Source: a virus
Strand: one strand, 5' to 3'
IMG/VR virus record: IMGVR_UViG_3300036818_000105
Span: 1 to 64,000 of that record
DNA length: 64,000 nt
Shown here: piece by piece, positions 35,423 to 57,036 of the stretch
Position numbering within the stretch: the first letter of the stretch is position 1
Layout: every line of letters starts with the position of its first letter
Position numbers and translations under genes: made by a program
The notes under the pieces: model-generated
Databases searched by the model: none
Seen by the model: the letters and a program-made list of their open reading frames with translations, nothing else
Told to the model about the DNA's origin: nothing

Positions 35423-36685
35423 GTGACTATACGGAACCGGCTATACCCCGACGCACGGGCGGAAGCGATCATGCGCGACCTGCACTGTGCGCAAGCCCGG
35501 TACGTGTGGAACCTCTGCGTCGAGCAGGAATCCTGGTGGCGGCGGGACCGCGGGAAGATGCCAACCTGGGTAGAGCGATGCCGCCAGTTGGCTGAGGCGC
35601 GGACTGAGTTTGAGTGGCTTCGCGCGGGCAGTAATGCAGTCCAGCAGCAGGCCATCAGGGACTTCGGACGGGCGATGACCGCCTTCCTTGATCCGAAGAA
35701 CCCGGCTAGAGAGCCAACGTTCCGGAAGGCGGTCCGCGATGAAGGATTTCGCATCGTCGGGGAGCGATCGGGACCGCACGTTTCCTGGGGCCTTCGGCGC
35801 CTGAACCGCAATTGGGGCGAGGTCCGCATCCCGAAGGTCGGCTGGGTCCGCTTCCGCTGGTCTAGGCCAGTTCCGGGAGATGTGAAGTCCTTCCGGGTCA
35901 CCCTTGACCGCGCAGGCCGATGGCACGTCTCGTTTCCGTCTCCGCAGGGCGCCGTCGGCCGTCGGCCGACCGGGGCGGCCGTCGGCATTGACCGGGGCGT
36001 CCGAACTGCCCTGGTCACCTCAGAAGGCCAGCATTTCCGAGTGCCCAGAATTGGCGACCGTGCTGCAGGGCGGTACGTCGCCCTGCAGCGGCGCATGTCC
36101 CGCCAGCAGAAGGGCTCGCGCAAGAGGGAGAAAACCCGGCTGGCAATGGCCCGGATCGCGGTAAGGGTTGCCGACCGGCGCAAGGACTGGGCAGAGAAGG
36201 TCTCCACGCGACTTGTTAGCGACTACGACCTGATCGTGTTCGAAAAGCTGAACGTGGTCCGCATGACTCGCAAGTCTGCACCCAAGTCCGATCCTGATCA
36301 GGTCGGTGCATTCCTTCCCAACAAGGCCCGCGCGAAGGCTGGGCTGAACCGAGGCATCCTCGCGGCATGCTGGGGCATTCTGGCCGCCCGTGCCGAGGAG
36401 AAGGCTGTCGCATCAGGCGTGAGTGTCATCTACGTCAACCCGAGATTCACCTCGCAGCAGTGCCATGCGTGCGGCCACGTGAGCCGGAAGAACCGCGAGA
36501 GCCAAGCGGTATTCCGGTGTGAGTCCTGTGGCCACCATGATCATGCTGACGCGAACGCTGCGAAGAACGTACTTGCCCGGGGGCTAGGCACAATGGCGGT
36601 CCCTGCGCACGCCCCGGGTCACGGGGTGCAACGCCCGCATAAGTCCGCGAGAGCGGCGGCGGGAACCACCCGGAGTGCGACATAA
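35423..36685 (+). CDS. tnpB: TnpB RNA-guided endonuclease (IS200/IS605-derived), copy 1
   Basis: RLYP, ARYVWN, RuvC-I GIDRG, RuvC-II FEKL, TSQQCHAC..CESC, RuvC-III DANAAKN. Confidence 0.96.
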   Translation: MTIRNRLYPDARAEAIMRDLHCAQARYVWNLCVEQESWWRRDRGKMPTWVERCRQLAEARTEFEWLRAGSNAVQQQAIRDFGRAMTAFLDPKNPAREPTFRKAVRDEGFRIVGERSGPHVSWGLRRLNRNWGEVRIPKVGWVRFRWSRPVPGDVKSFRVTLDRAGRWHVSFPSPQGAVGRRPTGAAVGIDRGVRTALVTSEGQHFRVPRIGDRAAGRYVALQRRMSRQQKGSRKREKTRLAMARIAVRVADRRKDWAEKVSTRLVSDYDLIVFEKLNVVRMTRKSAPKSDPDQVGAFLPNKARAKAGLNRGILAACWGILAARAEEKAVASGVSVIYVNPRFTSQQCHACGHVSRKNRESQAVFRCESCGHHDHADANAAKNVLARGLGTMAVPAHAPGHGVQRPHKSARAAAGTTRSAT

Positions 36686-47484: not shown

Positions 47485-48078
47485 ATGACCACGCAAACAC
47501 CCCGCAGCCGCGGCGGCAACGGCAAGTTCACCCGCGCCGCCGAGAGCCGCAAGCGCGACTGCCGTGCCGCCGAGCTCCACGGGCAGGGCTGGTCCTACCA
47601 GCGGATCGCCGACGAGCTCGGGTTCGCGTCCAAGGGCCACGCGCACAACGGCGTGATGCGCGCCTACGCCGACATGTGCACCGAGGAGGCGGGGCAGGCC
47701 CGGCAGGCCGACCTTGACCGCATCGACCGGCTCATCGAGCAGGCGTGGCAGGTGATGCTGACCCCGCACCTGACCGTGAACAACGGCAAGGTCATCCGCC
47801 ACTTCGCGGGCTTCGAGCGCGACGAGGACGGCATCGAGCGCCTCGACATGGACGGCAAGCCGATCCCGGTCTTCGTGGACGTGCTCGACGACGGCCCGAG
47901 GCTCGCCGCGGTCGGCGTCATCAAGGGGCTGCTCGAGCGCCGGGCGAGGATCTTCGGCTACGACGCCCCCGCCAAGTCCCGCGTCGAGGTGATCACGGCC
48001 GACATGGTCGAGTCGCAGATCGCCGACCTCGAGTCCCAACTGGCCCGCAATGACCCCGCTGGTCCAGGCACCCCCTGA
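47485..48078 (+). CDS. terS: terminase small subunit
   Basis: HTH GWSYQRIADELGF, DDGPRLAAV, RRARIFGYDAP; overlaps the terL start. Confidence 0.8.
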   Translation: MTTQTPRSRGGNGKFTRAAESRKRDCRAAELHGQGWSYQRIADELGFASKGHAHNGVMRAYADMCTEEAGQARQADLDRIDRLIEQAWQVMLTPHLTVNNGKVIRHFAGFERDEDGIERLDMDGKPIPVFVDVLDDGPRLAAVGVIKGLLERRARIFGYDAPAKSRVEVITADMVESQIADLESQLARNDPAGPGTP

Positions 48079-50818
48079 CCGCCTGCGGTACCTGCTGGAG
48101 CTCCAGCGCCGCGCCGCGAGGATCAAGCACGGGATCACCAGGTACTACGACGACCCGGTCGGCTTCGCGCGTGACTGCATCGACTGGGGCGACAGCGAGG
48201 GCCTGACCGAGTACCAGGAGGAGATCCTCGACGGGATTCCCCGCCGCAAGCGCGTCGCGGTACGAGGCCCCCACGGGCTCGGCAAGGCGCTAGAATTGAG
48301 TGTGCGCATACCCACCCCTTCCGGCTGGTCGACCATCGGCGGCCTGCGCGTCGGCGACGAGGTTTTCGACGAGCACGGCAAGCCCTGCCGGGTGACGGGC
48401 AAGTCGCCCGTATGGCACGGCGACACGTACGAAGTCGAGTTTGCGGACAAGACCGTCATCACCGCTCACGGCGAGCACGAGTGGAACGCAGTCGACGTCT
48501 ACCACCGCCCGAAGACACCGAAGCCAGACCGGCGGCCTGTGCCCGTTTCGGACTGGCGCGACCACTGGGTATCGACTAGGCGCGTCACTACCGCGTACAT
48601 GGCGGAGCACATGCTCTCGCCTGGCGGTCAGCTTCGGTGGCGCATCCCGGCAGCACGCCCGCTGGAGCTACGTGCCGCCGACCTGCCGGTTGACCCGTAC
48701 ATCCTTGGGTACTGGCTCGGTGACGGATCGTCGAGGGGCGCCCAGATAACGATCTGCGCCAGCGACTGGCCGAGCCTGCAAGAGCGCCTGAAGGATGCCG
48801 GGTATCACCATGGCGAGCCCCGGCCGCATAAGGCCAGCCCGTCAACCTTCTCAGTGGGCGTCTCCACGCAGCCGGTGCGCCGTGGCGGCGGCCAGCATGA
48901 CACGCTGGCGCTCAGGCTCCGCAATCTCGGCGTCCTCGGCAATAAGCACATCCCGGTGATCTACCAGCGGGCATCCGCGGCGCAGCGCATGGAGGTTGTG
49001 CGCGGACTGTGGGACTCGGACGGCTACCGGCAGGCTGGCGGCAGCGACGAGATCACGCTCACCTGCAAGCCGCTAGCGGATGACGTAGCTGAGCTGCTGC
49101 GGTCTCTCGGCCTGGTGGTCCGGGTAAGCGAAAGCGACTCCAAGATTGACGGGCGCGTGGTCGGCCGCAGGTGGCGCATCGCCGCCCGGTTCGACTTCAA
49201 CCCCTACCGTCTTGCGCGCTACGACTGGGAGCCCCGCGGCCGGCAGTCCTCTCGCCACACCCAGCGGACGATCACGGATATCCGCAGGGTGGCCGACAAG
49301 CCGACCCAGTGCATCGAGGTGGACTCGCCGTCGCACCTGTACCTCGCTGGCGACTCAATGATCCCGACGCACAACTCCGGGATAGCGGCCATCGCCGTCC
49401 ACTGGTTCGCCCTGACGCGGGACGCGGCCGGCGTCGACTGGAAGATCCCTGCGACCGCCGGGTCATGGCACCAGCTGACCCAGTACCTGTTCCCTGAGAT
49501 CCACAAGTGGGCCGGGCGCCTGCGATGGGACAAGGTGCGGGACGGCCGCCCGTTCTCCCGCGCGCACGAGCTCCAGAACCTGAACCTGCGCCTGGCGCAC
49601 GGCTCCGCCTTCGCGGGGGCATCGGCGAACGCGGCGCTGATCGAGGGCGCGCACGCCGACTCGCTGCTGTTCCTGTTCGACGAGGGAAAGGCCATCCCGG
49701 CCGCCACGTTCGACGCATGTGAGGGCGCCCTCGGCGGCACGGGCGAGGCCTTCGCCCTGATCCTGTCAACGCCGGGGGCACCGTCAGGGCGCTTCTACGA
49801 CATCTGCGCGCGCAAGCCCGGCTACGAGGACTGGCACCCTGTCCACGTCACCCTCGAGCGCGCGATCGCCGCCGGGCGCATCAGCGAGGAGTGGGCTGAG
49901 CAGCGCGCCCGTCAGTGGGGCACCGAGTCGGCGATCTACCAGAACCGCGTCCTGGGCGAGTTCTACGCCAGTGACGAGGACTCGGTTATCCCCCTCGCGT
50001 GGGCGGAGGCGGCGGTTGCCCGCTGGCACGCCTGGGACGAGGCCGGGCGTCCGGAACCGGGCAGGCCGCGCACGGTTGGCGTGGACGTGGCCCGCACCGG
50101 CCAGGACCGCACGGTCCTCGCCCTCCGCAACGGCCCGGTGATCACGGAGCTGCGCCGGTCGGTGAAGGAAGACACGATGCAGACCACCGGCCGCGTGAAG
50201 GGCATCCTTGACGCCGACGACTCGGTTACCGCCGTGGTCGACGTGATCGGCATCGGCGCAGGCGTCGTTGACCGCCTCCGCGAGCAGCACGCCCGGGTGC
50301 TGGCTTTCAACGCCTCCCGCGGGTCGAAGGCGAAGGACAGCACGAGGGAGTTCGGCTTCGCGAACCGCCGGAGTGAGGCGTGGTGGACGATGAGGCAGGC
50401 GCTGGACCCGTCGAGCGACCCGGATATCTGCTTCCCTGACGACGAGATGCTGCTCGGTGACCTCTCGGCACCGCAGTGGAAAGTCACGTCATCCGGAAGG
50501 ATCGCGGTGGAGACTAAAGAGGAGATCGCCAAGCGCCTAGGCCGGTCAACTGACGACGGTGACGCGGTAATTCAGGCTTTCGTCCCGCACCTCGGCGAGT
50601 CTTCGCCGGGCACCGTCCGCAAGTGGGCCGGGTCCGTCGAGCTCGACAGCATGGGCGTGAGCGAGGAAACGAAGGCTCACCGCCGCATGAGGGAGATCGC
50701 GGGCAAGGCGGCCGAGGGACTTGAGGACGCGCCGTGGGATCTCGACGGATTCTCGCCGCAGGACGGCGATGACAGACCGCAGGGCGGGCGACGGGGCAAC
50801 GTCCGGACGTGGCAGTAG
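48050..50818 (+). CDS. terL: terminase large subunit with intein
   Basis: VAVRGPHGLGK/S Walker A, FLFDEG Walker B, STPG, RVLGEF, GVDVAR.G.D, VDVIGIGAGV.DRL, RS.DDGDA. Confidence 0.95.
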   Translation: MTPLVQAPPDRLRYLLELQRRAARIKHGITRYYDDPVGFARDCIDWGDSEGLTEYQEEILDGIPRRKRVAVRGPHGLGKALELSVRIPTPSGWSTIGGLRVGDEVFDEHGKPCRVTGKSPVWHGDTYEVEFADKTVITAHGEHEWNAVDVYHRPKTPKPDRRPVPVSDWRDHWVSTRRVTTAYMAEHMLSPGGQLRWRIPAARPLELRAADLPVDPYILGYWLGDGSSRGAQITICASDWPSLQERLKDAGYHHGEPRPHKASPSTFSVGVSTQPVRRGGGQHDTLALRLRNLGVLGNKHIPVIYQRASAAQRMEVVRGLWDSDGYRQAGGSDEITLTCKPLADDVAELLRSLGLVVRVSESDSKIDGRVVGRRWRIAARFDFNPYRLARYDWEPRGRQSSRHTQRTITDIRRVADKPTQCIEVDSPSHLYLAGDSMIPTHNSGIAAIAVHWFALTRDAAGVDWKIPATAGSWHQLTQYLFPEIHKWAGRLRWDKVRDGRPFSRAHELQNLNLRLAHGSAFAGASANAALIEGAHADSLLFLFDEGKAIPAATFDACEGALGGTGEAFALILSTPGAPSGRFYDICARKPGYEDWHPVHVTLERAIAAGRISEEWAEQRARQWGTESAIYQNRVLGEFYASDEDSVIPLAWAEAAVARWHAWDEAGRPEPGRPRTVGVDVARTGQDRTVLALRNGPVITELRRSVKEDTMQTTGRVKGILDADDSVTAVVDVIGIGAGVVDRLREQHARVLAFNASRGSKAKDSTREFGFANRRSEAWWTMRQALDPSSDPDICFPDDEMLLGDLSAPQWKVTSSGRIAVETKEEIAKRLGRSTDDGDAVIQAFVPHLGESSPGTVRKWAGSVELDSMGVSEETKAHRRMREIAGKAAEGLEDAPWDLDGFSPQDGDDRPQGGRRGNVRTWQ
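48287..49375 (+). mobile_element. 363-aa class 3 intein with LAGLIDADG endonuclease
   Basis: Starts with Ala (ALELSVRIPTP), ends THN/S; LGYWLGDG and RGLWDSDG; W-C-T triad (HEW, QCI, PTHN). Confidence 0.92.
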
Positions 50819-50832
50819 GCAGGCCGACCCGC

Positions 50833-51237
50833 CTACATGAACTCCACGTCCTCCCCGGCCGCCGCTGCCTTCCGTAGCCCGTCGATGAACCGCTCAGTGT
50901 TTTCCCGCGCGCGGTAGACCGCGCCGTCCAGCAGCGGCAGCAGCTGCTCTAGCCGGTCCGCGAGGTGAGCGCCGTGCTGCGGGTGAATGACCCCGTCGCA
51001 GTCCGAGTGAACGAGCAGGAACAGCAGCGGGTCGTCTCCGGGGATGGCGTCCCACTCGCCCAGGTAGTTCTTGTCCTCGAACATCTCCCACGGCAGTTCG
51101 TAGTACGCCTCGCCGCGCAGGACGTTAGGCGTTCTGTCGCTGACCTGGTACCCCGCCGCCCTGGCCACCTCGCGCCGCCACCGCTGGAACCCGCCGTACG
51201 GCCCGTGCCAGCACTCGTGACTGGTGTCTAGTCCCAC
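50833..51237 (-). CDS. conserved phage hypothetical protein
   Basis: Y.GF..WR..A..LL.HSDCDG.I..FIDGL..AA..GE.VEF. Confidence 0.8.
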   Translation of the reverse strand: MGLDTSHECWHGPYGGFQRWRREVARAAGYQVSDRTPNVLRGEAYYELPWEMFEDKNYLGEWDAIPGDDPLLFLLVHSDCDGVIHPQHGAHLADRLEQLLPLLDGAVYRARENTERFIDGLRKAAAAGEDVEFM

Positions 51238-51259
51238 GCCCGGCAGCCTACATGCGCGC

Positions 51260-51550
51260 TCAGGCCGGGCCCTCCCCTTCCGCCGCGAACTGCTCCGGGT
51301 GGGCGATGGCGTACCGGGCCACTATCAGCTCGTGCTCGCTCAGGTATTCAGGGTCAAAGACGTAGACCCGGCGCGGCGTCCCCGGCTGGTCGCACTCGGG
51401 GCCCCCGTCCCGGTGGACCGCGTCACTGGCGAAGTGACGGTGGAACGGCCCCCACGACTCCGGCCACTTGCCGGCTCGCTCAGCCTTGTCGCGGTCGGCC
51501 TCCCACGGCGTGCGGGTGTCCTGGTCGTCCTCTGGGTCCGGGGTGCTCAT
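51260..51550 (-). CDS. hypothetical protein duplicated from the C-terminus of 41159-41659
   Basis: Contains inverted repeat copy 2. Confidence 0.75.
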   Translation of the reverse strand: MSTPDPEDDQDTRTPWEADRDKAERAGKWPESWGPFHRHFASDAVHRDGGPECDQPGTPRRVYVFDPEYLSEHELIVARYAIAHPEQFAAEGEGPA

Positions 51551-51801
51551 GACTTCCTCCGGTTGCTGGTCACCACGGGCTCGAACTCGGCCGTCCAGCC
51601 CTCAGTGCCACGGTAGACGGTAACCGGGGCGTTCTTCGGCGCGAACGCCGCGCCTTCCATGCGGACCACCCCGATGCCGGGCAGCGTGATGCCGTCTCCG
51701 GCTAGGGCGTACTCGCCCGGGAGGTAGCGCGTCCCGCACCGTTCGTGACCCGGCCCTTGGCAGCGTCCCGTCCCGGCGACACGGCAGCGCCACTCAGGCA
51801 T
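51547..51801 (-). CDS. hypothetical protein
   Basis: MPEWRC start; coupled. Confidence 0.55.
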   Translation of the reverse strand: MPEWRCRVAGTGRCQGPGHERCGTRYLPGEYALAGDGITLPGIGVVRMEGAAFAPKNAPVTVYRGTEGWTAEFEPVVTSNRRKS

Positions 51802-52156
51802 TGCCGTCAGCCCCTTCCCCCGGCGCGAACTTAGCGGCCTCTCGCTCGATGTCCGGGTTGTCCTCAGCCGACTCCAGTACGAGCGATGCGCCGCGCTGGA
51901 GCCGGTTGGCGAGCACGAGCGCGTCTTCGGCCGTGAGCAGGACAGAGGAGACGCTCGGCGTGCCGTCCCCGTCCTCGCTGTTGATGACCAGTCCGACCAT
52001 GCCGGGGTCATGTGCCGCGTCCCCGCAGTGCTCGCAGGTAGACGCGCCCTCAGGCTCGTAGACGTGCTCGACGATGATCACGGTGTCTTCGTCAGGGTGG
52101 ACGCACCCGAGGATGCGTGAGCGGATTCTGATGCCGCCGGGCTCGTTGTCACTCAT
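51794..52156 (-). CDS. hypothetical protein
   Basis: MSDNEPG start 7 nt after TATACT (leaderless). Confidence 0.65.
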   Translation of the reverse strand: MSDNEPGGIRIRSRILGCVHPDEDTVIIVEHVYEPEGASTCEHCGDAAHDPGMVGLVINSEDGDGTPSVSSVLLTAEDALVLANRLQRGASLVLESAEDNPDIEREAAKFAPGEGADGNA

Positions 52157-52225
52157 AAGCCAGAGTATACCCGGATATTGCCGCTTCACTGTGTAGTGCG
52201 CACGTTCATCATGTAGAATAAGGTC

Positions 52226-52471
52226 ATGACCGACGCTAGCCCGGTTGCCATCCAGCGAGCCATCGCGGCCAACATCCGAGCCGAACGCGCCCGCGCCCGG
52301 CTCTCTCAGCAGGCCGTGGCAGACGCCATGCAGAAGCGCGGGTTCGCCTACTGGCGCCAGCAGACAACCGGAGCGACCGAACGCGGCGAGCGCCGGATAA
52401 CCGCCGATGAACTGACCGCACTCGCCGCCGTATTCGGCACCGCGCCGGAGACGCTCTGGCGGATGCCGTGA
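52226..52471 (+). CDS. XRE HTH regulator coupled to tnpB
   Basis: IAANIRAERARARLSQQAVA..ERGERRITADEL..LA..F; TAGAAT 6 nt upstream. Confidence 0.9.
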   Translation: MTDASPVAIQRAIAANIRAERARARLSQQAVADAMQKRGFAYWRQQTTGATERGERRITADELTALAAVFGTAPETLWRMP

Positions 52472-53658
52472 GGCGGGCCTACAAGTTCCTCGCATACCCG
52501 ACGCGACCCCAGGAGGGCCGCTCGGGCGCGCTGCTGCGCGACCACTGCGACCTGTACGACGCCGCGCTCGAGGAACGCCGCGAGGCGTGGCGGATGCGGA
52601 AAGCTCCGGTGTCCTACGGCATGCAGTCTGCCCAGCTCAAGGAGATCCGAGCGGCCGACCCGGACGGGCAGGGGAGGCACTCGTTCACCGCCCAGCAGCA
52701 AACCCTGCGCAGGCTCAACGACGCGTTCGTTATGTTCTACAAGCGGTGCAAGATCCCGGGCAAGAAGCCGGGCTACCCGAGGTTCAAGCCGTACGCCCGG
52801 TTCGATCAGGTCCGGTTCGTCGCCGGAGACGGTGCGAAGTGGACCCCGGCGAACGGCATTGGCTGGGCACGCGCCTACTTCCAGGCGGTCGGCTCGGTCA
52901 AGGTGAAGCAGCACCGGCCGGTGACGGGCACCGTCAAGGCGCTCCAACTCAAGCGGGAGCACCGCCGCTGGTACGTCATCGTCATCACCGAAACTGAGCC
53001 GGTGCCGCTGCCCCCGGCGGGCCGTGAAGTCGGCGTAGACGTGGGGGTGGTGCGGTTCCTGACCACCTCGGACGGCGGGATCGTGGCCAATCCGCGTTTC
53101 TTCGCCGCGTCGGCCGGGGTGATCGCGGACTTGCAGCGCCGCATGAACCGCGCCAGGCCGGGTTCGGGGAACCGCAAGCGGATCAGGCGCGCCCTGGCCC
53201 GGGAGCACCGCAAGGTCAGGAACTCCCGCCGCGACTTCCACCACAAGACCGCGCGAATTCTCATTGACGAGTGTGACGTGATCGCCCTGGAAGACCTCAA
53301 CACGGAAGGGATGACCAGGCGTCCCAAACCGAAGCCCGACCCGGACAAGCCGGGCGAGCACCTCCCGAACGGGGCCGCCTCCAAGGCCGGCCTGAACAAG
53401 TCGATACGCGACGCGGGCTGGGCACAGTTCATGAGCATCATCGTCGGCAAGGCTGAGAGCGCCGGCCGGCGAGTGATCCTGGTGGACCCGCGGAACACGA
53501 GCATCGACTGTCACCAGTGCGGGCGAAGATGCGAGCGCCCGCAGCAGGACACGGTTATCTGCCCCGCGCACGGCGCGATGGACGCCGACGTGAACGGGGC
53601 CAGAAACATCGCCAGCAGGGCCGGGCTGGGCTCTGGTCAGGCCGCGCGAGCGGCCTGA
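52468..53658 (+). CDS. tnpB: TnpB RNA-guided endonuclease, copy 2
   Basis: RAYKFLAYPT, GYPRFK, RuvC-I GVDVG, RuvC-II LEDL, TSIDCHQC..CPAH, RuvC-III DVNGARN. Confidence 0.96.
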   Translation: MRRAYKFLAYPTRPQEGRSGALLRDHCDLYDAALEERREAWRMRKAPVSYGMQSAQLKEIRAADPDGQGRHSFTAQQQTLRRLNDAFVMFYKRCKIPGKKPGYPRFKPYARFDQVRFVAGDGAKWTPANGIGWARAYFQAVGSVKVKQHRPVTGTVKALQLKREHRRWYVIVITETEPVPLPPAGREVGVDVGVVRFLTTSDGGIVANPRFFAASAGVIADLQRRMNRARPGSGNRKRIRRALAREHRKVRNSRRDFHHKTARILIDECDVIALEDLNTEGMTRRPKPKPDPDKPGEHLPNGAASKAGLNKSIRDAGWAQFMSIIVGKAESAGRRVILVDPRNTSIDCHQCGRRCERPQQDTVICPAHGAMDADVNGARNIASRAGLGSGQAARAA

Positions 53659-53710
53659 GAAGGTGGCGGAGCGATCCGCCATAGCAGTCACCCAGTTTTC
53701 CAGATACGTC
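53580..53710 (+). ncRNA. predicted omegaRNA for TnpB copy 2 (5' end approximate; guide from 53692)
   Basis: Hairpins CAGGCCGC..GCGGCCTG and TGGCGGA..TCCGCCA, then GCAGTCAC right-end motif (TCAC 53688-53691). Confidence 0.72.
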
Positions 53711-53810
53711 GACGACTTCTTTCTCTCCTCCCTGCTGCACGGCGGCGAAAGCCCCGCCGCCAGGCAGCAGGGAGCGTGACCGGCACTGCCTCCGCACGCT
53801 AGCCTGTGAG

Positions 53811-53846
53811 CGTGCACGTGCATTCGTCGCGTGCAGATGCACACGC
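53811..53846 (+). promoter_or_regulatory. TGCACGTGCA box upstream of the portal operon
   Basis: CGTGCA at 53811, 53817, 53830; AGGAGG SD at 53858-53863. Confidence 0.6.
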
Positions 53847-53875
53847 TAGCGGCGGAGAGGAGGTGATGCTTGGGT

Positions 53876-55492
53876 ATGGTCGACACTCGCTCCGCAAATG
53901 TCGTCGCCTTCCCCGACCTCGCGCCGAAGGGCTCTCGCGGCCCCAGCGGCAAGCGGGCCCTTTTGGGTCCAGAGGTAGGGACGTCGTTCGATTACGGACA
54001 GCGCTTGTTCGCCTACTATTAGTTAAGGCGAAGGAGATGTGTTCGACTACGGCTTAGCGAATTTTCCGCTCGTGACTACAAAACGATGTTGTCCCGTAAC
54101 GGAATGTGCGCGGCCATCGAGCAGGTACTCACTCTCCCGATCAGGGGCGCCCCGTACACCATCGAGCCCGCCAAGGGTGACCAGGGCGAGGCCGAGTTCG
54201 TGACCAGCGTTCTCATGACAGCCGACGAGGACGGCGGCATGAAAACACCTATCAGCACGCTGGTCGGCCAGATTACGAGCGCGCAGATTTTCCGTCGCGC
54301 CTTCTTCGAACGTACTTACAAGGTTCGCGAATCCGACGGCAAGATCATTTACGACAAGGTGGCCTTTCGCCCCCCCGCGACCTGTCAGGCCAGGTACAAC
54401 GACCGTACGGGCGAGCCGAACGGGTTCCGTCAGCAGGTCTGGTTGTTCGGCGGGAACTTGATGCTCAACCGCACTCAGAAGGTTCCCGGCTACGTCGACA
54501 TCCCGAAAATCAGGAGCTACATATACACCCACGGGAAACACAGGGAACCTCTCACTGGTGTCAGTGAGATGGAAACGGCCTACTGGTGCTACCAGACCCA
54601 GGCGAAGCTAGCCTACCTATGGCTCAGCTTTCTCGAGGGAATGGCGATGCAGCGCCTCGTCGTCTACGGCAACGACCAGCCGGAGGCATCCCAGCGAGCG
54701 GATGACATCTCCCAGCTGCGCGGTTCCGGCATTGTCGGCCTTATCCACCCGATCGACGGGCAGAAGTCGTTCGAGGCCCTCCCCACGGCCGCGGACGCGG
54801 GCGCCCAGTTCGCGGCGTGCATGACGTACCTGGAGAACTGGGCAGCCAGCAGCGTCCTCGCCGGCTTCCTGCAGCTTTCCGGCGCGGCGGCGAAGGGCAC
54901 CCGGGCGGGCGGCGGCGCCAGTGCCGGCTCCTACGGCATGAGCGAGGACCAGAGCTCGTACTACCTGGCCTCCCGTGAGGCGGCGGCAACGGAGATAGCG
55001 GACAGTATCTCCCATGACCTGATCCGCCCCCTGGTGACCCTGAACTTCGGCGCGGACGCGGCGTTCCCGAAGTGGAAGTTCGGCCCGTTGCAGGAGGCCA
55101 TGACGGCCGTACTTTTCACCATGTTCGGGCAGCTAGCCGCCGCCCCCAAATTGAACCTGCCCCTCGCGTTCGTGGACCTCCTCACCGAGCGGATGGCGGT
55201 GATCCTGAACCTGGACGCGGACCAGATTCACGAGTCGCTGGTGAATACCGCGTCGCAGCGGGCGGAGGCGCTGGCGGGCAATCCCCCGCCCGGCATACCC
55301 CCGGAGGCCGCGGCGGGACTGGGGCAGTTGCAGGGGCTGGCGCAGGCGGGGACGTCGATCGCGCAGCAGGCGATAGCGAGGAACGGCGGGCCGCCGACGC
55401 CGCCGAAGGTGACCATGCCGCCGGCCGGGCCGCCCGCGCCCCCGCCCAAGCCGCCGATGGCCGGGGGACTCGCGGGGGCGGCGGCGCAGTGA
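53876..55492 (+). CDS. portal protein (DUF935/Mu gp29-like); 5' part interrupted, continuous ORF 54086-55492
   Basis: IEQVLTLPIR, AFFE, FRP..TC, GFRQ, P..G.S, SVLAGFL.L, GSY.MS.DQS, LIRPLV.LNFG..FP..KFGPL; follows terL. Confidence 0.85.
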
Positions 55493-57036
55493 CCGGGTGC
55501 GCGAGGTGCAACGGCGAGGGGTGGACGTGCGAGTCGCATCCCCGCCGCGCGTGGGGTGACATGTGCTGCGACGGGCCACGCCGGGCGGCGATCGTGCACC
55601 AGTTGCACCGCCTGCTGCCGTACGGCGGGCCATTCCGGCTGGCGTGGCGGATCCGCGTGCTGTGCGAGCACGGCGCGTGCCACTGCGGCGGCGCCGGCGA
55701 CCCGTGCCCGGACTGCAATTCCACGGCTGACGTCAACTGGGCCGACAATCATTGCGGAGGCGTCCTGATGACCCCGGAGGAGGCCGCGAACTTCTGCGAG
55801 GACGACGAGGACCCGCGCGAGGTCTTCGCCCGGTTCGACGCCGGGCCGCACGTCGTCACCGGCCAGGCGTGGTACGAGGCGGGCGGCACGCTGCCGCTTG
55901 CCCTTACCGCCGTGCGCAACGGCACGGGCACGGCCGAGCGGGTCCGGCGGGGACTGGACTACATCAAGGCGACATACGGGCCGGGGGCGAGCCAGTGAGC
56001 CTGACGATGCTGACGGAGATCGCAGACCACTGCACCGTGCGGACTCCCCTCGGCGAGACCGAGTTCGCCGACGTCACCGTGATGGTCGTCGAGAACGTAC
56101 TGACCGTGAACCGCGACGGCCGCACGCTGGCGTGGTTCGCGGCCGGGTCATGGCGGGTGAGCTTCCTGTGAGCGAGTGGCGGCGCGACCCGGTCAAGTAC
56201 TGGTGGGAACTCGGCTACTGGGACGAGCCCCGGCAGGAGTTCATCGGCGTGGCGTGGGTGACTGACGAGGTGATCGCCCGCGCCGACCCCAGGATGACCG
56301 CCGCGTACCTGTACCGCAAGCTCGGCACCGTGCCGCCGCCGCTGGCCGGGTATCCTCCGCCGCCACCCGTGCCGGTGACGGTCGTGTACGCGGAGGGATC
56401 GCGGTGAGCGACTACAAGATCGCGAAGACGCTGCGGGTCGTCCGGGAGGGCGCCGGCGGTGCGTCTCGCCTCTACATCGACGGCGAGCCGTTCGACTACG
56501 CGACGGTCGACGGGTACACGGTCCACCCGAGGCGGGGCGAGATGCCGGGCGTTACCGTCACGATCGCCGCGTGGCGGGTCGAGCTCGTGGACGACACCGA
56601 CGCGAAAGCCGGGCGAGTTGTCGCCGGCCGCGCCAGGTTCCGAACCAGATCAGGAGAGTTAGCCCAGTGACCGAGAGCAAGCCCGGTGCCGTTGCCGTCA
56701 TCGACCAAGCCGGCCGCCACCACCACTTCGACGCGGACGACTGGCTCGTAGACCTGAAGGGCTACCTGCACGTCACGAAGGACGGCAAGAACGACGATCC
56801 TGTCGCCTTCTTCACGCCGGGCTTCCTCGGCGTCTACAGGGTCAGCGCCCGCGCCGCCGCGCCGGTAACGGTCATCGGTTCACCCCGAACCGCTGCCGCA
56901 AGCGCCGCCATCGAGACCTTGCGGCGGGAAGTCGAGGCGGCGCCAAGCGGAGAAGGAAAGGCGGGTGATGCCCTGTGATCGACGATGACCCTCAAGACGG
57001 GCACCGTGGCAGGGCGGGCGGGACCGGGGGCGTGCC

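Follow-up and report, generated by a model that had tools for sequence, protein, structure and literature searches.

A phage TnpB cassette with a predicted guide that resembles portal gene alleles of related phages

We analysed a stretch of 64,000 nucleotides (the window) from a soil phage. The window makes up the first 64 kb of its record in IMG/VR (IMGVR_UViG_3300036818_000105), which is 124,491 bp long and bears direct terminal repeats. Upstream of the gene for the phage portal protein, the window carries a tnpB gene of the IS200/IS605 family, referred to here as tnpB-2, together with a structured RNA region (the omegaRNA scaffold) at its 3' end. The 19 nt that follow the right end of this element, and that would template the guide of the omegaRNA, resemble the minus strand of a site within the portal gene of the same phage. 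In nearly all alleles known from related phages this site is flanked by the transposon-associated motif (TAM) of the TnpB-2 family, and the resident site has lost it. The features concerned are given below in positions of the window; loci retrieved for comparison are cited by L numbers.

52226..52471, plus strand: XRE-type helix-turn-helix (HTH) gene, 81 aa (Pfam HTH_31, 6.3e-07, and HTH_3; PHROG transcriptional repressor)
52468..53658, plus strand: tnpB-2, 396 aa, IS200/IS605 family (Pfam OrfB_IS605, 1e-23; Cas12f1-like_TNB, 5e-16)
53615..53691, plus strand: omegaRNA scaffold, 3' portion (window aligned with 19 relatives; RNAalifold)
53615-53638, plus strand: invariant 24-nt block, unchanged even at third codon positions
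53637-53658, plus strand: hairpin A, which holds the tnpB stop codon (RNAalifold; compensatory double changes in 3 pairs)
53663-53682, plus strand: hairpin B (RNAalifold; compensatory double changes in 7 of 8 pairs)
53688-53691, plus strand: right-end terminus TCAC, the limit of conservation in relatives
53692..53710, plus strand: guide-templating segment CCAGTTTTCCAGATACGTC, the first 19 nt past the right end
53728..53774, plus strand: strong hairpin, separated from the guide by 17 nt (arms of 20 nt, 90% complementarity, U tract absent)
54086..55492, plus strand: Mu-type portal gene, which holds the target (Pfam Portal_Mu, 1.5e-25; PHROG portal protein)
54823..54841, minus strand: resident target CCAGTTCTCCAGGTACGTC, encoding T-Y-L-E-N-W, 17/19 compared to the guide
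54842..54845, minus strand: resident TAM position, CTGC (Ala codon GCA), compared to CCAT or TCAT in 13 of 14 alleles of relatives

The TnpB-2 protein, its omegaRNA scaffold and the motif of its family

Alignment with ISDra2 TnpB (8BF8/8EXA) identified the RuvC triad of TnpB-2 as D191 (in GVDVG), E275 (in IALEDL) and D372/D374 (in DADVNGARN), and the zinc finger has the form CxxC...CxxH. In a scan that took one genome per species and retained the best 80 of 112 relatives, about 20 proteins were 60–78% identical to TnpB-2. These were encoded in metagenome-assembled genomes of Actinomycetota, often in multiple copies per genome, and many were preceded by an IS200-type Y1 tnpA whose stop codon overlaps the tnpB start. 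No Y1 transposase was found in the phage, as the Pfam family Y1_Tnp (PF01797) had 0 matches across the 124-kb record. The presence of all three acidic residues and the lack of tnpA had both been claimed in the original prediction, an earlier annotation made from the letters of this DNA, and both claims were borne out. A profile of the left end of the TnpB-2 family likewise returned nothing in the phage (best E 2.3), with a sensitivity of 3 of 9 control loci that had not been used in building it (E 8.7e-14, 6.4e-07 and 1.5e-04). With neither a left end nor tnpA in the record, the cassette would be unable to move by the peel-and-paste route, and it lacks the Y1 TnpA and the hairpin-bearing left end that characterise an autonomous IS200/IS605 transposon. 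Nor was there a repeat-spacer array, as a type V CRISPR-Cas system would have, in 50800-54200 or in 50800-55500.

The invariant block, hairpin A and hairpin B all lie within the last 85 nt of the element, and the window preserves every one of the 8 hairpin B pairs by means of two double changes that are its own. Two compensated hairpins and an invariant block at the right end thus amount to the anatomy of an omegaRNA scaffold; a search of the whole window against Rfam at gathering thresholds returned no family. The right end was conserved in 19 of 19 close relatives up to CAGTCAC (18) or CAGTCAT (1), and the sequences were unrelated from the next base. The locus therefore combines the protein domains, structured scaffold and right end of an IS200/IS605 TnpB-omegaRNA system with the family TAM described below. 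The strong hairpin at 53728-53774 may be the 3' boundary or the terminator of the guide transcript; it was not called in a scan for consensus terminators.

The TAM is not readable in the window itself, where the left end is absent, and CCAT was taken from the family. Directly 5' of the left end, which begins with a conserved CAA or CAG, 13 of the 17 relatives whose upstream region was examined carry CCAT (12) or TCAT (1), with unrelated DNA before it; the remaining four (L055, L065, L068 and L072) have no clear left boundary. For an empty-site test, the whole L060 locus was used to search relatives of the L060-bearing genome. Five genomes (L196-L200) had an uninterrupted site, ...CTCGGCCAT (or GGGCAT), followed at once by the sequence that stands after TCAC in L060. 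These empty sites indicate that the family inserts 3' of (C)CAT without duplication and that templating of the guide starts with the base right after TCAC. Together with the 19 relatives they agree with the right end originally predicted at 53688-53691, and the guide begins where it had been placed. The CCAT target was often the antisense of a start codon (ATGG...) in the left flanks of L058, L060, L067, L071 and others, and IS copies hence tend toward the 5' ends of opposite-strand genes.

The guide match and the portal alleles of related phages

The guide (53692-53710) and the minus strand of 54823-54841 were identical at 17 of 19 positions. At guide position 7 (plus strand 54835) the portal gene has GAG rather than GAA (Glu), and at guide position 13 (plus strand 54829) it has TAC rather than TAT (Tyr), such that both mismatches are silent third positions within T-Y-L-E-N-W, just as the original prediction had described them. 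The target lies 1.1 kb from the guide, in the opposite orientation and 740 nt inside the portal gene. It was the sole match with ≤3 mismatches in the window, compared to 0.01 expected (100 shuffles), and it was also unique across the 124,491-bp record; among 300 genomes simulated with a first-order Markov model, 0 had a match with ≤2 mismatches and 2 had one with ≤3. These statistics are valid solely on the ground that the right-end boundary had already dictated which 19-mer to query. The similarity to the portal gene has the length of a guide (19–20 nt), with the right end as its precise starting point. We considered whether the guide belongs to a longer duplicated piece of the portal gene and rejected this, as there was no similarity beyond these 19–20 nt, and a direct similarity between 53694-53713 and 54480-54499 (16/20) was at chance level. 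Among bacterial IS copies, 0 of 19 had a second match to their own guide (≤3 mismatches, within their own locus).

Alleles of the target were gathered from 46 portal loci obtained in a protein-based scan of IMG/VR and from a degenerate DNA pattern consisting of CAT plus the target. The pattern was found at 19 further viral (IMG/VR) and 41 Joint Genome Institute (JGI) metagenome loci; 25 of these 60 were portal homologues, and the other 35 were unrelated sequences with 3–5 mismatches, none of them perfect. The target site was present in portal context in 42 loci, which represent 14 distinct alleles. In 13 of the 14, CCAT (11) or TCAT (2) on the minus strand abuts the guide-like 19-mer at its 5' side, where it is the antisense of the Met codon ATG in W-M-A/T. 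A conserved 5' TAM at the portal site of related phages, which the original prediction had proposed to look for, was thus found.

The 13 TAM-bearing alleles differ from the guide at 1–4 positions. Four alleles (8 loci) are perfect at guide positions 1–12 and have 1–2 distal mismatches: that of L012/L143/L165/L178 is 18/19, with its sole difference at position 13, and those of L020, of L158/L179 and of L174 differ only within positions 13–16. The remaining alleles have 1–2 mismatches inside positions 1–12. The variable target positions (7, 10, 13 and 16) are all codon third positions, and both guide-specific letters are seen in some allele. The target is thus placed as in homing, within a conserved neighbouring gene in relatives that are without the nuclease, though none of these targets is 19/19.

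The resident portal gene has its TAM replaced (Met to Ala), in addition to the mismatches at guide positions 7 and 13, and judged by sequence only its allele would be resistant to the predicted nuclease. The change from ATG to GCA at 54842-54844 alters all three bases and is common to the window and L021-L026. A quick portal tree was built from 51 sequences (29 unique rows), using only tblastn spans that run from residue ≤5 to ≥390. The row nearest to the window was L020 (91% amino-acid identity, TAM present), with the placement of the window not firm, and L021-26 were nested among the W-M alleles and not sister to the window. The shared Met-to-Ala change may stem from recombination of this patch or from a polymorphism of long standing.

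Neighbouring genes and distribution of the cassette

Two further genes in the window are of interest here.

48050..50818: large terminase, 922-aa open reading frame (PHROGs)
35423..36685: TnpB-1, a second tnpB, 420 aa, 35% identical to TnpB-2

The stop codon of the HTH gene overlaps the tnpB-2 start (GTGA), at the same spot where relatives carry the IS200 tnpA, and its product is probably a regulator that is co-transcribed with tnpB-2. Upstream, 52157-52225 is a divergent intergenic region between the HTH gene and a minus-strand gene with a probable start near 52156. A -10-like hexamer, TAGAAT, stands 7 nt before the HTH ATG and would fit a leaderless HTH-tnpB transcript. The small minus-strand open reading frames at 50833-52156 received no function from Pfam or PHROGs. 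Just 5' of the portal gene (53870-54085) there is a 50-aa open reading frame, with one in-frame TAG (54020-54022) between the two. The same region is part of a single longer portal reading frame in L020 (585 aa) and L022 (544 aa), and the DNA homology of relatives begins at 53830-53893. The portal start would thus be either variable, or the N-terminus split or read through.

The terminase contains an insert of ~355 aa (residues about 88-441, roughly 48311-49372), with a match to Pfam LAGLIDADG_3 at residues 313-377, which looks like an intein. It is not present in the terminases of L049 or L051; homologous inserts (29–31% identity) split the portals of L052, L158 and L179. The terminase-portal gap also differs in size, being ~3 kb in the window, ~0.15 kb in L049 and ~1 kb in L051. 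Both L049 and L051 thus have much shorter gaps without the cassette, but they are distant (portal amino acids 68%, and 84% over residues 1-229 only). L053:676-2421 is occupied by a 1,746-bp IS200/IS605 element from a different family, with a Y1 tnpA on the minus strand and a tnpB on the plus strand. This element was inserted without duplication upstream of the portal gene, at a distance of 330 bp, and its guide is its own flank, as in a canonical insertion. The L053 flanks are 100% identical to L022-L025, and exact empty sites were found in L021-L025 (e.g. L024:2421|2422); L026 offered only 85 nt of left flank for the comparison. Of the 87 loci obtained by portal or pattern search, L053 alone had a tnpB upstream of its portal gene, and the L053 contig stops before the portal target. 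L053 serves as an example of ordinary insertion into the terminase-portal region and shows that elements of this kind can settle there. Considering the gap sizes, the LAGLIDADG insert and the L053 element, the terminase-portal locus is a hot spot for selfish nucleases.

TnpB-1 belongs to a different omegaRNA family from TnpB-2, and the DNA after its probable right end (to about 36745) had no second match in the genome (18-mers, ≤2 mismatches). A single tyrosine-recombinase match was found in the record (G000:C1:99257-99790, in a 538-aa open frame outside the window), and no serine recombinase was matched in the record. The phage may be temperate, in which case the cassette could act from a prophage.

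Megablast found nothing similar to 51500-56000 among the phages of the INPHARED collection, and TnpB-2 had only 6 distant loci in IMG/VR (37–42%), with no second phage copy of the cassette there. We also compared the locus with four soil runs (DNA contigs only, uncovered parts being uninformative). Low-depth contigs ~97–99% identical to the HTH-tnpB-2 cassette covered 53518-53754 (X1) and 52203-53697 (X3 and X4); the X1 contig spans the right end, the guide position and the downstream flank, the guide letters not being readable there. These near-identical contigs from other soil metagenomes indicate that more than one sample contains the cassette.

Interpretation and comparison with known systems

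We consider it reasonably probable that TnpB-2 is an immobilised RNA-guided nuclease that cuts the portal alleles of rival phages, for exclusion or for freestanding homing. The cassette would consist of an XRE regulator, tnpB, an omegaRNA scaffold and one guide, placed between the terminase and portal genes of a 124-kb actinophage. A transcript through the tnpB 3' end and the right end would give an omegaRNA ending in ~19 nt, CCAGUUUUCCAGAUACGUC, and the TnpB-omegaRNA complex would bind DNA in which 5'-CCAT is followed by a match to the guide. Related phages would offer such a site on the template strand of their portal gene, over the conserved T-Y-L-E-N-W-M codons, and RuvC would cut there. 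The resident portal gene would escape through the loss of the TAM (CTGC) and the silent differences at positions 7 and 13. When two phages infect together, or a lysogen is superinfected, the break would destroy the rival genome (exclusion), or its repair from the resident genome would turn the rival portal into the resistant allele. A conversion tract that extended 1.1–2.4 kb leftward would bring the cassette along, similar to the intronless homing of T-even seg/mob genes. The boundaries, TAM, match, distribution of alleles, intact catalytic residues and RNA stems, and the loss of the parts needed for transposition were observed, whereas we infer that the RNA is expressed, that DNA is cut, how mismatches act and that there is any drive.

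Several results weigh against this role. The perfect guide match that the original prediction expected in the portal genes of relatives was not found in any of the 42 portal-context loci or 14 alleles, the best being 18/19; the single mismatch of this allele sits at guide position 13, and the exact 19-mer guide had 0 matches in IMG/VR. Known relatives are only 74–80% identical in portal DNA, and hence distant as rivals. Our searches yielded no cassette-free related phage that shares the flanks, and in the ≤3 kb upstream of the portal genes of the 82–88% portal group, tblastn detected no homologs of the window's upstream genes; such differing upstream flanks would limit co-conversion of the cassette. 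No RNA runs matching 52200-55500 were listed. The predicted escape of the resident allele through silent changes or TAM loss held only in part: CTGC and the position 7 mismatch agree with it, but the TAM-less W-A-A-S allele (GCA-GCC) is also carried by L021-26, relatives without this TnpB, and three soil runs contained an abundant ~90% portal relative without the cassette that has T at 54829, like the guide, and GCAGCC, with no TAM. The occurrence of the TAM-less allele in cassette-free relatives means that TAM loss need not be an adaptation to the nuclease. In addition, a role in cutting rival portals does not account for how the 19 nt were gained. Overall, the original interpretation was partly supported, and all of its anatomical predictions that could be tested computationally held.

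The explanations that we weighed against a nuclease aimed at rivals differ in what they leave unexplained. A rearrangement could have left a functionless scar, if an IS605 element had inserted at the portal CCAT in some phage and its tnpB, right end and a stub of flank had later moved to the present position. We regard this as unlikely, though it deserves to be taken seriously, as the portal site is a bona fide insertion site for the family (CCAT, then flank), these phages do receive IS605 insertions, neither the left end nor tnpA has been retained, and no perfect target is known. A scar would not be expected to keep a full-length reading frame with its catalytic residues, omegaRNA stems maintained by compensatory changes in the window itself, or a stub that is exactly guide-sized and begins exactly at the right end. 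Moreover, the resident target differs at the TAM and seed, which is unexpected for a neutral scar, and the cassette recurs at ~97–99% identity in contigs of other soil runs, one of which spans the right end, guide position and flank (guide letters not readable). By contrast, ordinary insertion, in which the 19 nt are simply native insertion-site DNA and TnpB performs its usual restorative homing of the transposon, is the default for IS200/IS605 elements (PMC8612924) and is exactly the situation of the L053 element. We nevertheless hold it to be very improbable. Without a left end and tnpA there is no excision to restore, and 53692-53830 is native in no relative, since homology to the 45 blastn-matched portal loci (L009-L053) starts at 53830-54068 or later. 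Ordinary insertion would predict an uninterrupted CCAT + CCAGTTTTCCAGATACGTCGACGAC... upstream of a related portal, which is so far absent, and the degenerate CAT-plus-target scan gave only portal-coding or unrelated sites. Under ordinary insertion the portal match, the TAM of relatives and the silent mismatches would also all be coincidences.

Chance resemblance in a G+C-rich genome has something to recommend it in general terms: an all-against-all comparison of 4.7 kb (50800-55500) gave several chance pairs of similar quality, 17–19 nt at 85–89% (e.g. 19 nt at 89%), and sliding 18-mers from the G+C-rich flanks often matched somewhere else in the genome with 2 mismatches. For the fixed 19-mer, however, the expectation was 0.01 at ≤3 mismatches, 0 of 300 simulated genomes had a match at ≤2, the TAM coincides independently in 13 of 14 alleles and both mismatches are silent, such that we find chance barely credible. 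Taken together, a guide-sized match that begins at the right end, a TAM in nearly all relatives and not in the resident, and silent differences make both chance and a plain flank poor explanations. Self-regulation would have the omegaRNA, with or without TnpB, tune the phage's own portal gene or mRNA in a TldR-like or antisense manner. It draws on the complementarity of the guide to the resident portal mRNA (17/19, antisense; one mismatch would be a G-U pair) and on TldR proteins, which are phage-encoded TnpB relatives that act as RNA-guided repressors (10.1101/2023.11.30.569447, PMC13418256). Such a role is quite improbable in our judgement, given that the RuvC triad is intact, unlike that of TldR, that the resident site is without the TAM needed for DNA binding (a requirement described in PMC8612924), that the site lies 740 nt inside the gene and not in a promoter, and that the guide fits the alleles of relatives equally well or better than the resident one.

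A bolder version of the nuclease aimed at rivals treats the cassette as a functional RNA-guided gene drive that operates between phages with a single spacer; its guide would have been acquired and would not be an inherited insertion flank. The captured piece is 19–20 nt long, starts from the right end and equals the TAM-to-cut distance, which suggests that a portal cut made by TnpB was rejoined to the right end; we think this version improbable as a whole. Were the guide indeed acquired, it would represent a primitive route of 'spacer acquisition', and phage TnpB cassettes would be a living intermediate between transposon omegaRNAs and CRISPR immunity.

TnpB is a transposon-maintenance nuclease and the ancestor of Cas12, and its known exaptations are CRISPR effectors and dead repressors. 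If TnpB-2 does cut rival portals, it would be a third route of exaptation, an RNA-guided equivalent of freestanding homing endonucleases, and would show the uncoupling of a guide from its insertion site, a key step toward CRISPR-like targeting. It would also add an RNA-programmable mechanism to phage-phage competition and would explain the commonness of solo tnpB genes in phage head-gene regions. The locus would make a clean test case, in that the TAM, the guide boundary, the candidate target alleles and a predicted resistant allele are all defined from sequence. In the literature covered, with supplements (e.g. the PMC10691335 tables on immobilised TnpBs) outside the search, we found no account of a phage-encoded TnpB whose guide addresses a neighbour gene in rival phages.

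The closest biochemical reference is ISDra2, in which the TAM is the TnpA target motif, cleavage needs both the TAM and a guide match, and the cut falls 15–21 bp from the TAM (Karvelis 2021, PMC8612924). TnpB-2 belongs to the same protein family as ISDra2-type TnpB, with the same domain order and D-E-D triad (PMC8612924; 8BF8, 8EXA, 8H1J). In both, the scaffold overlaps the tnpB 3' end and ends at the right end, the guide follows immediately and the TAM is the motif 5' of the left end. Unlike ISDra2, the TnpB-2 cassette is without tnpA and a left end, and its TAM is CCAT rather than TTGAT. Its guide, furthermore, addresses not its own donor joint but a neighbouring essential gene in the spelling of other phages.

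In their proposed effect, the freestanding homing endonucleases of T-even phages (SegB, SegF, SegG and MobE) are the nearest parallel, as they cause intronless homing and localised marker exclusion (PMC13565253, PMC2330249, PMC2790892). As in these systems, the nuclease gene stands between conserved essential genes, the target is in the neighbouring conserved gene of relatives, self would be told from non-self by a few substitutions, and co-conversion of flanking markers would be expected. The table of homing types in one review lists intronless homing only for protein endonucleases (PMC13565253). Recognition by TnpB-2 would differ in relying on a 19-nt RNA guide and a 4-nt TAM instead of protein-DNA contacts.

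Virus-borne CRISPR systems aimed at rival viruses include the Cas12j systems of huge phages and the mini-arrays of archaeal viruses. A further phage-borne system aimed at rivals is Cas12r of the Thermus Lalka phages (10.64898/2026.04.20.719267, PMC11437467). TnpB-2 is similarly a virus-encoded RuvC nuclease of the TnpB/Cas12 lineage that would be RNA-guided against competing mobile elements; unlike phage-borne CRISPR-Cas, it is without repeats, an array and adaptation genes, and has a single guide fixed at the transposon right end. TldR proteins are nuclease-dead TnpB-like repressors that are encoded together with a guide in prophages and target host promoters (10.1101/2023.11.30.569447, PMC13418256). 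TnpB-2 resembles them in being an immobilised phage relative of TnpB with a guide aimed away from its own insertion flank, and differs from them in that it keeps D191, E275 and D374 and would address the coding sequence of a phage gene.

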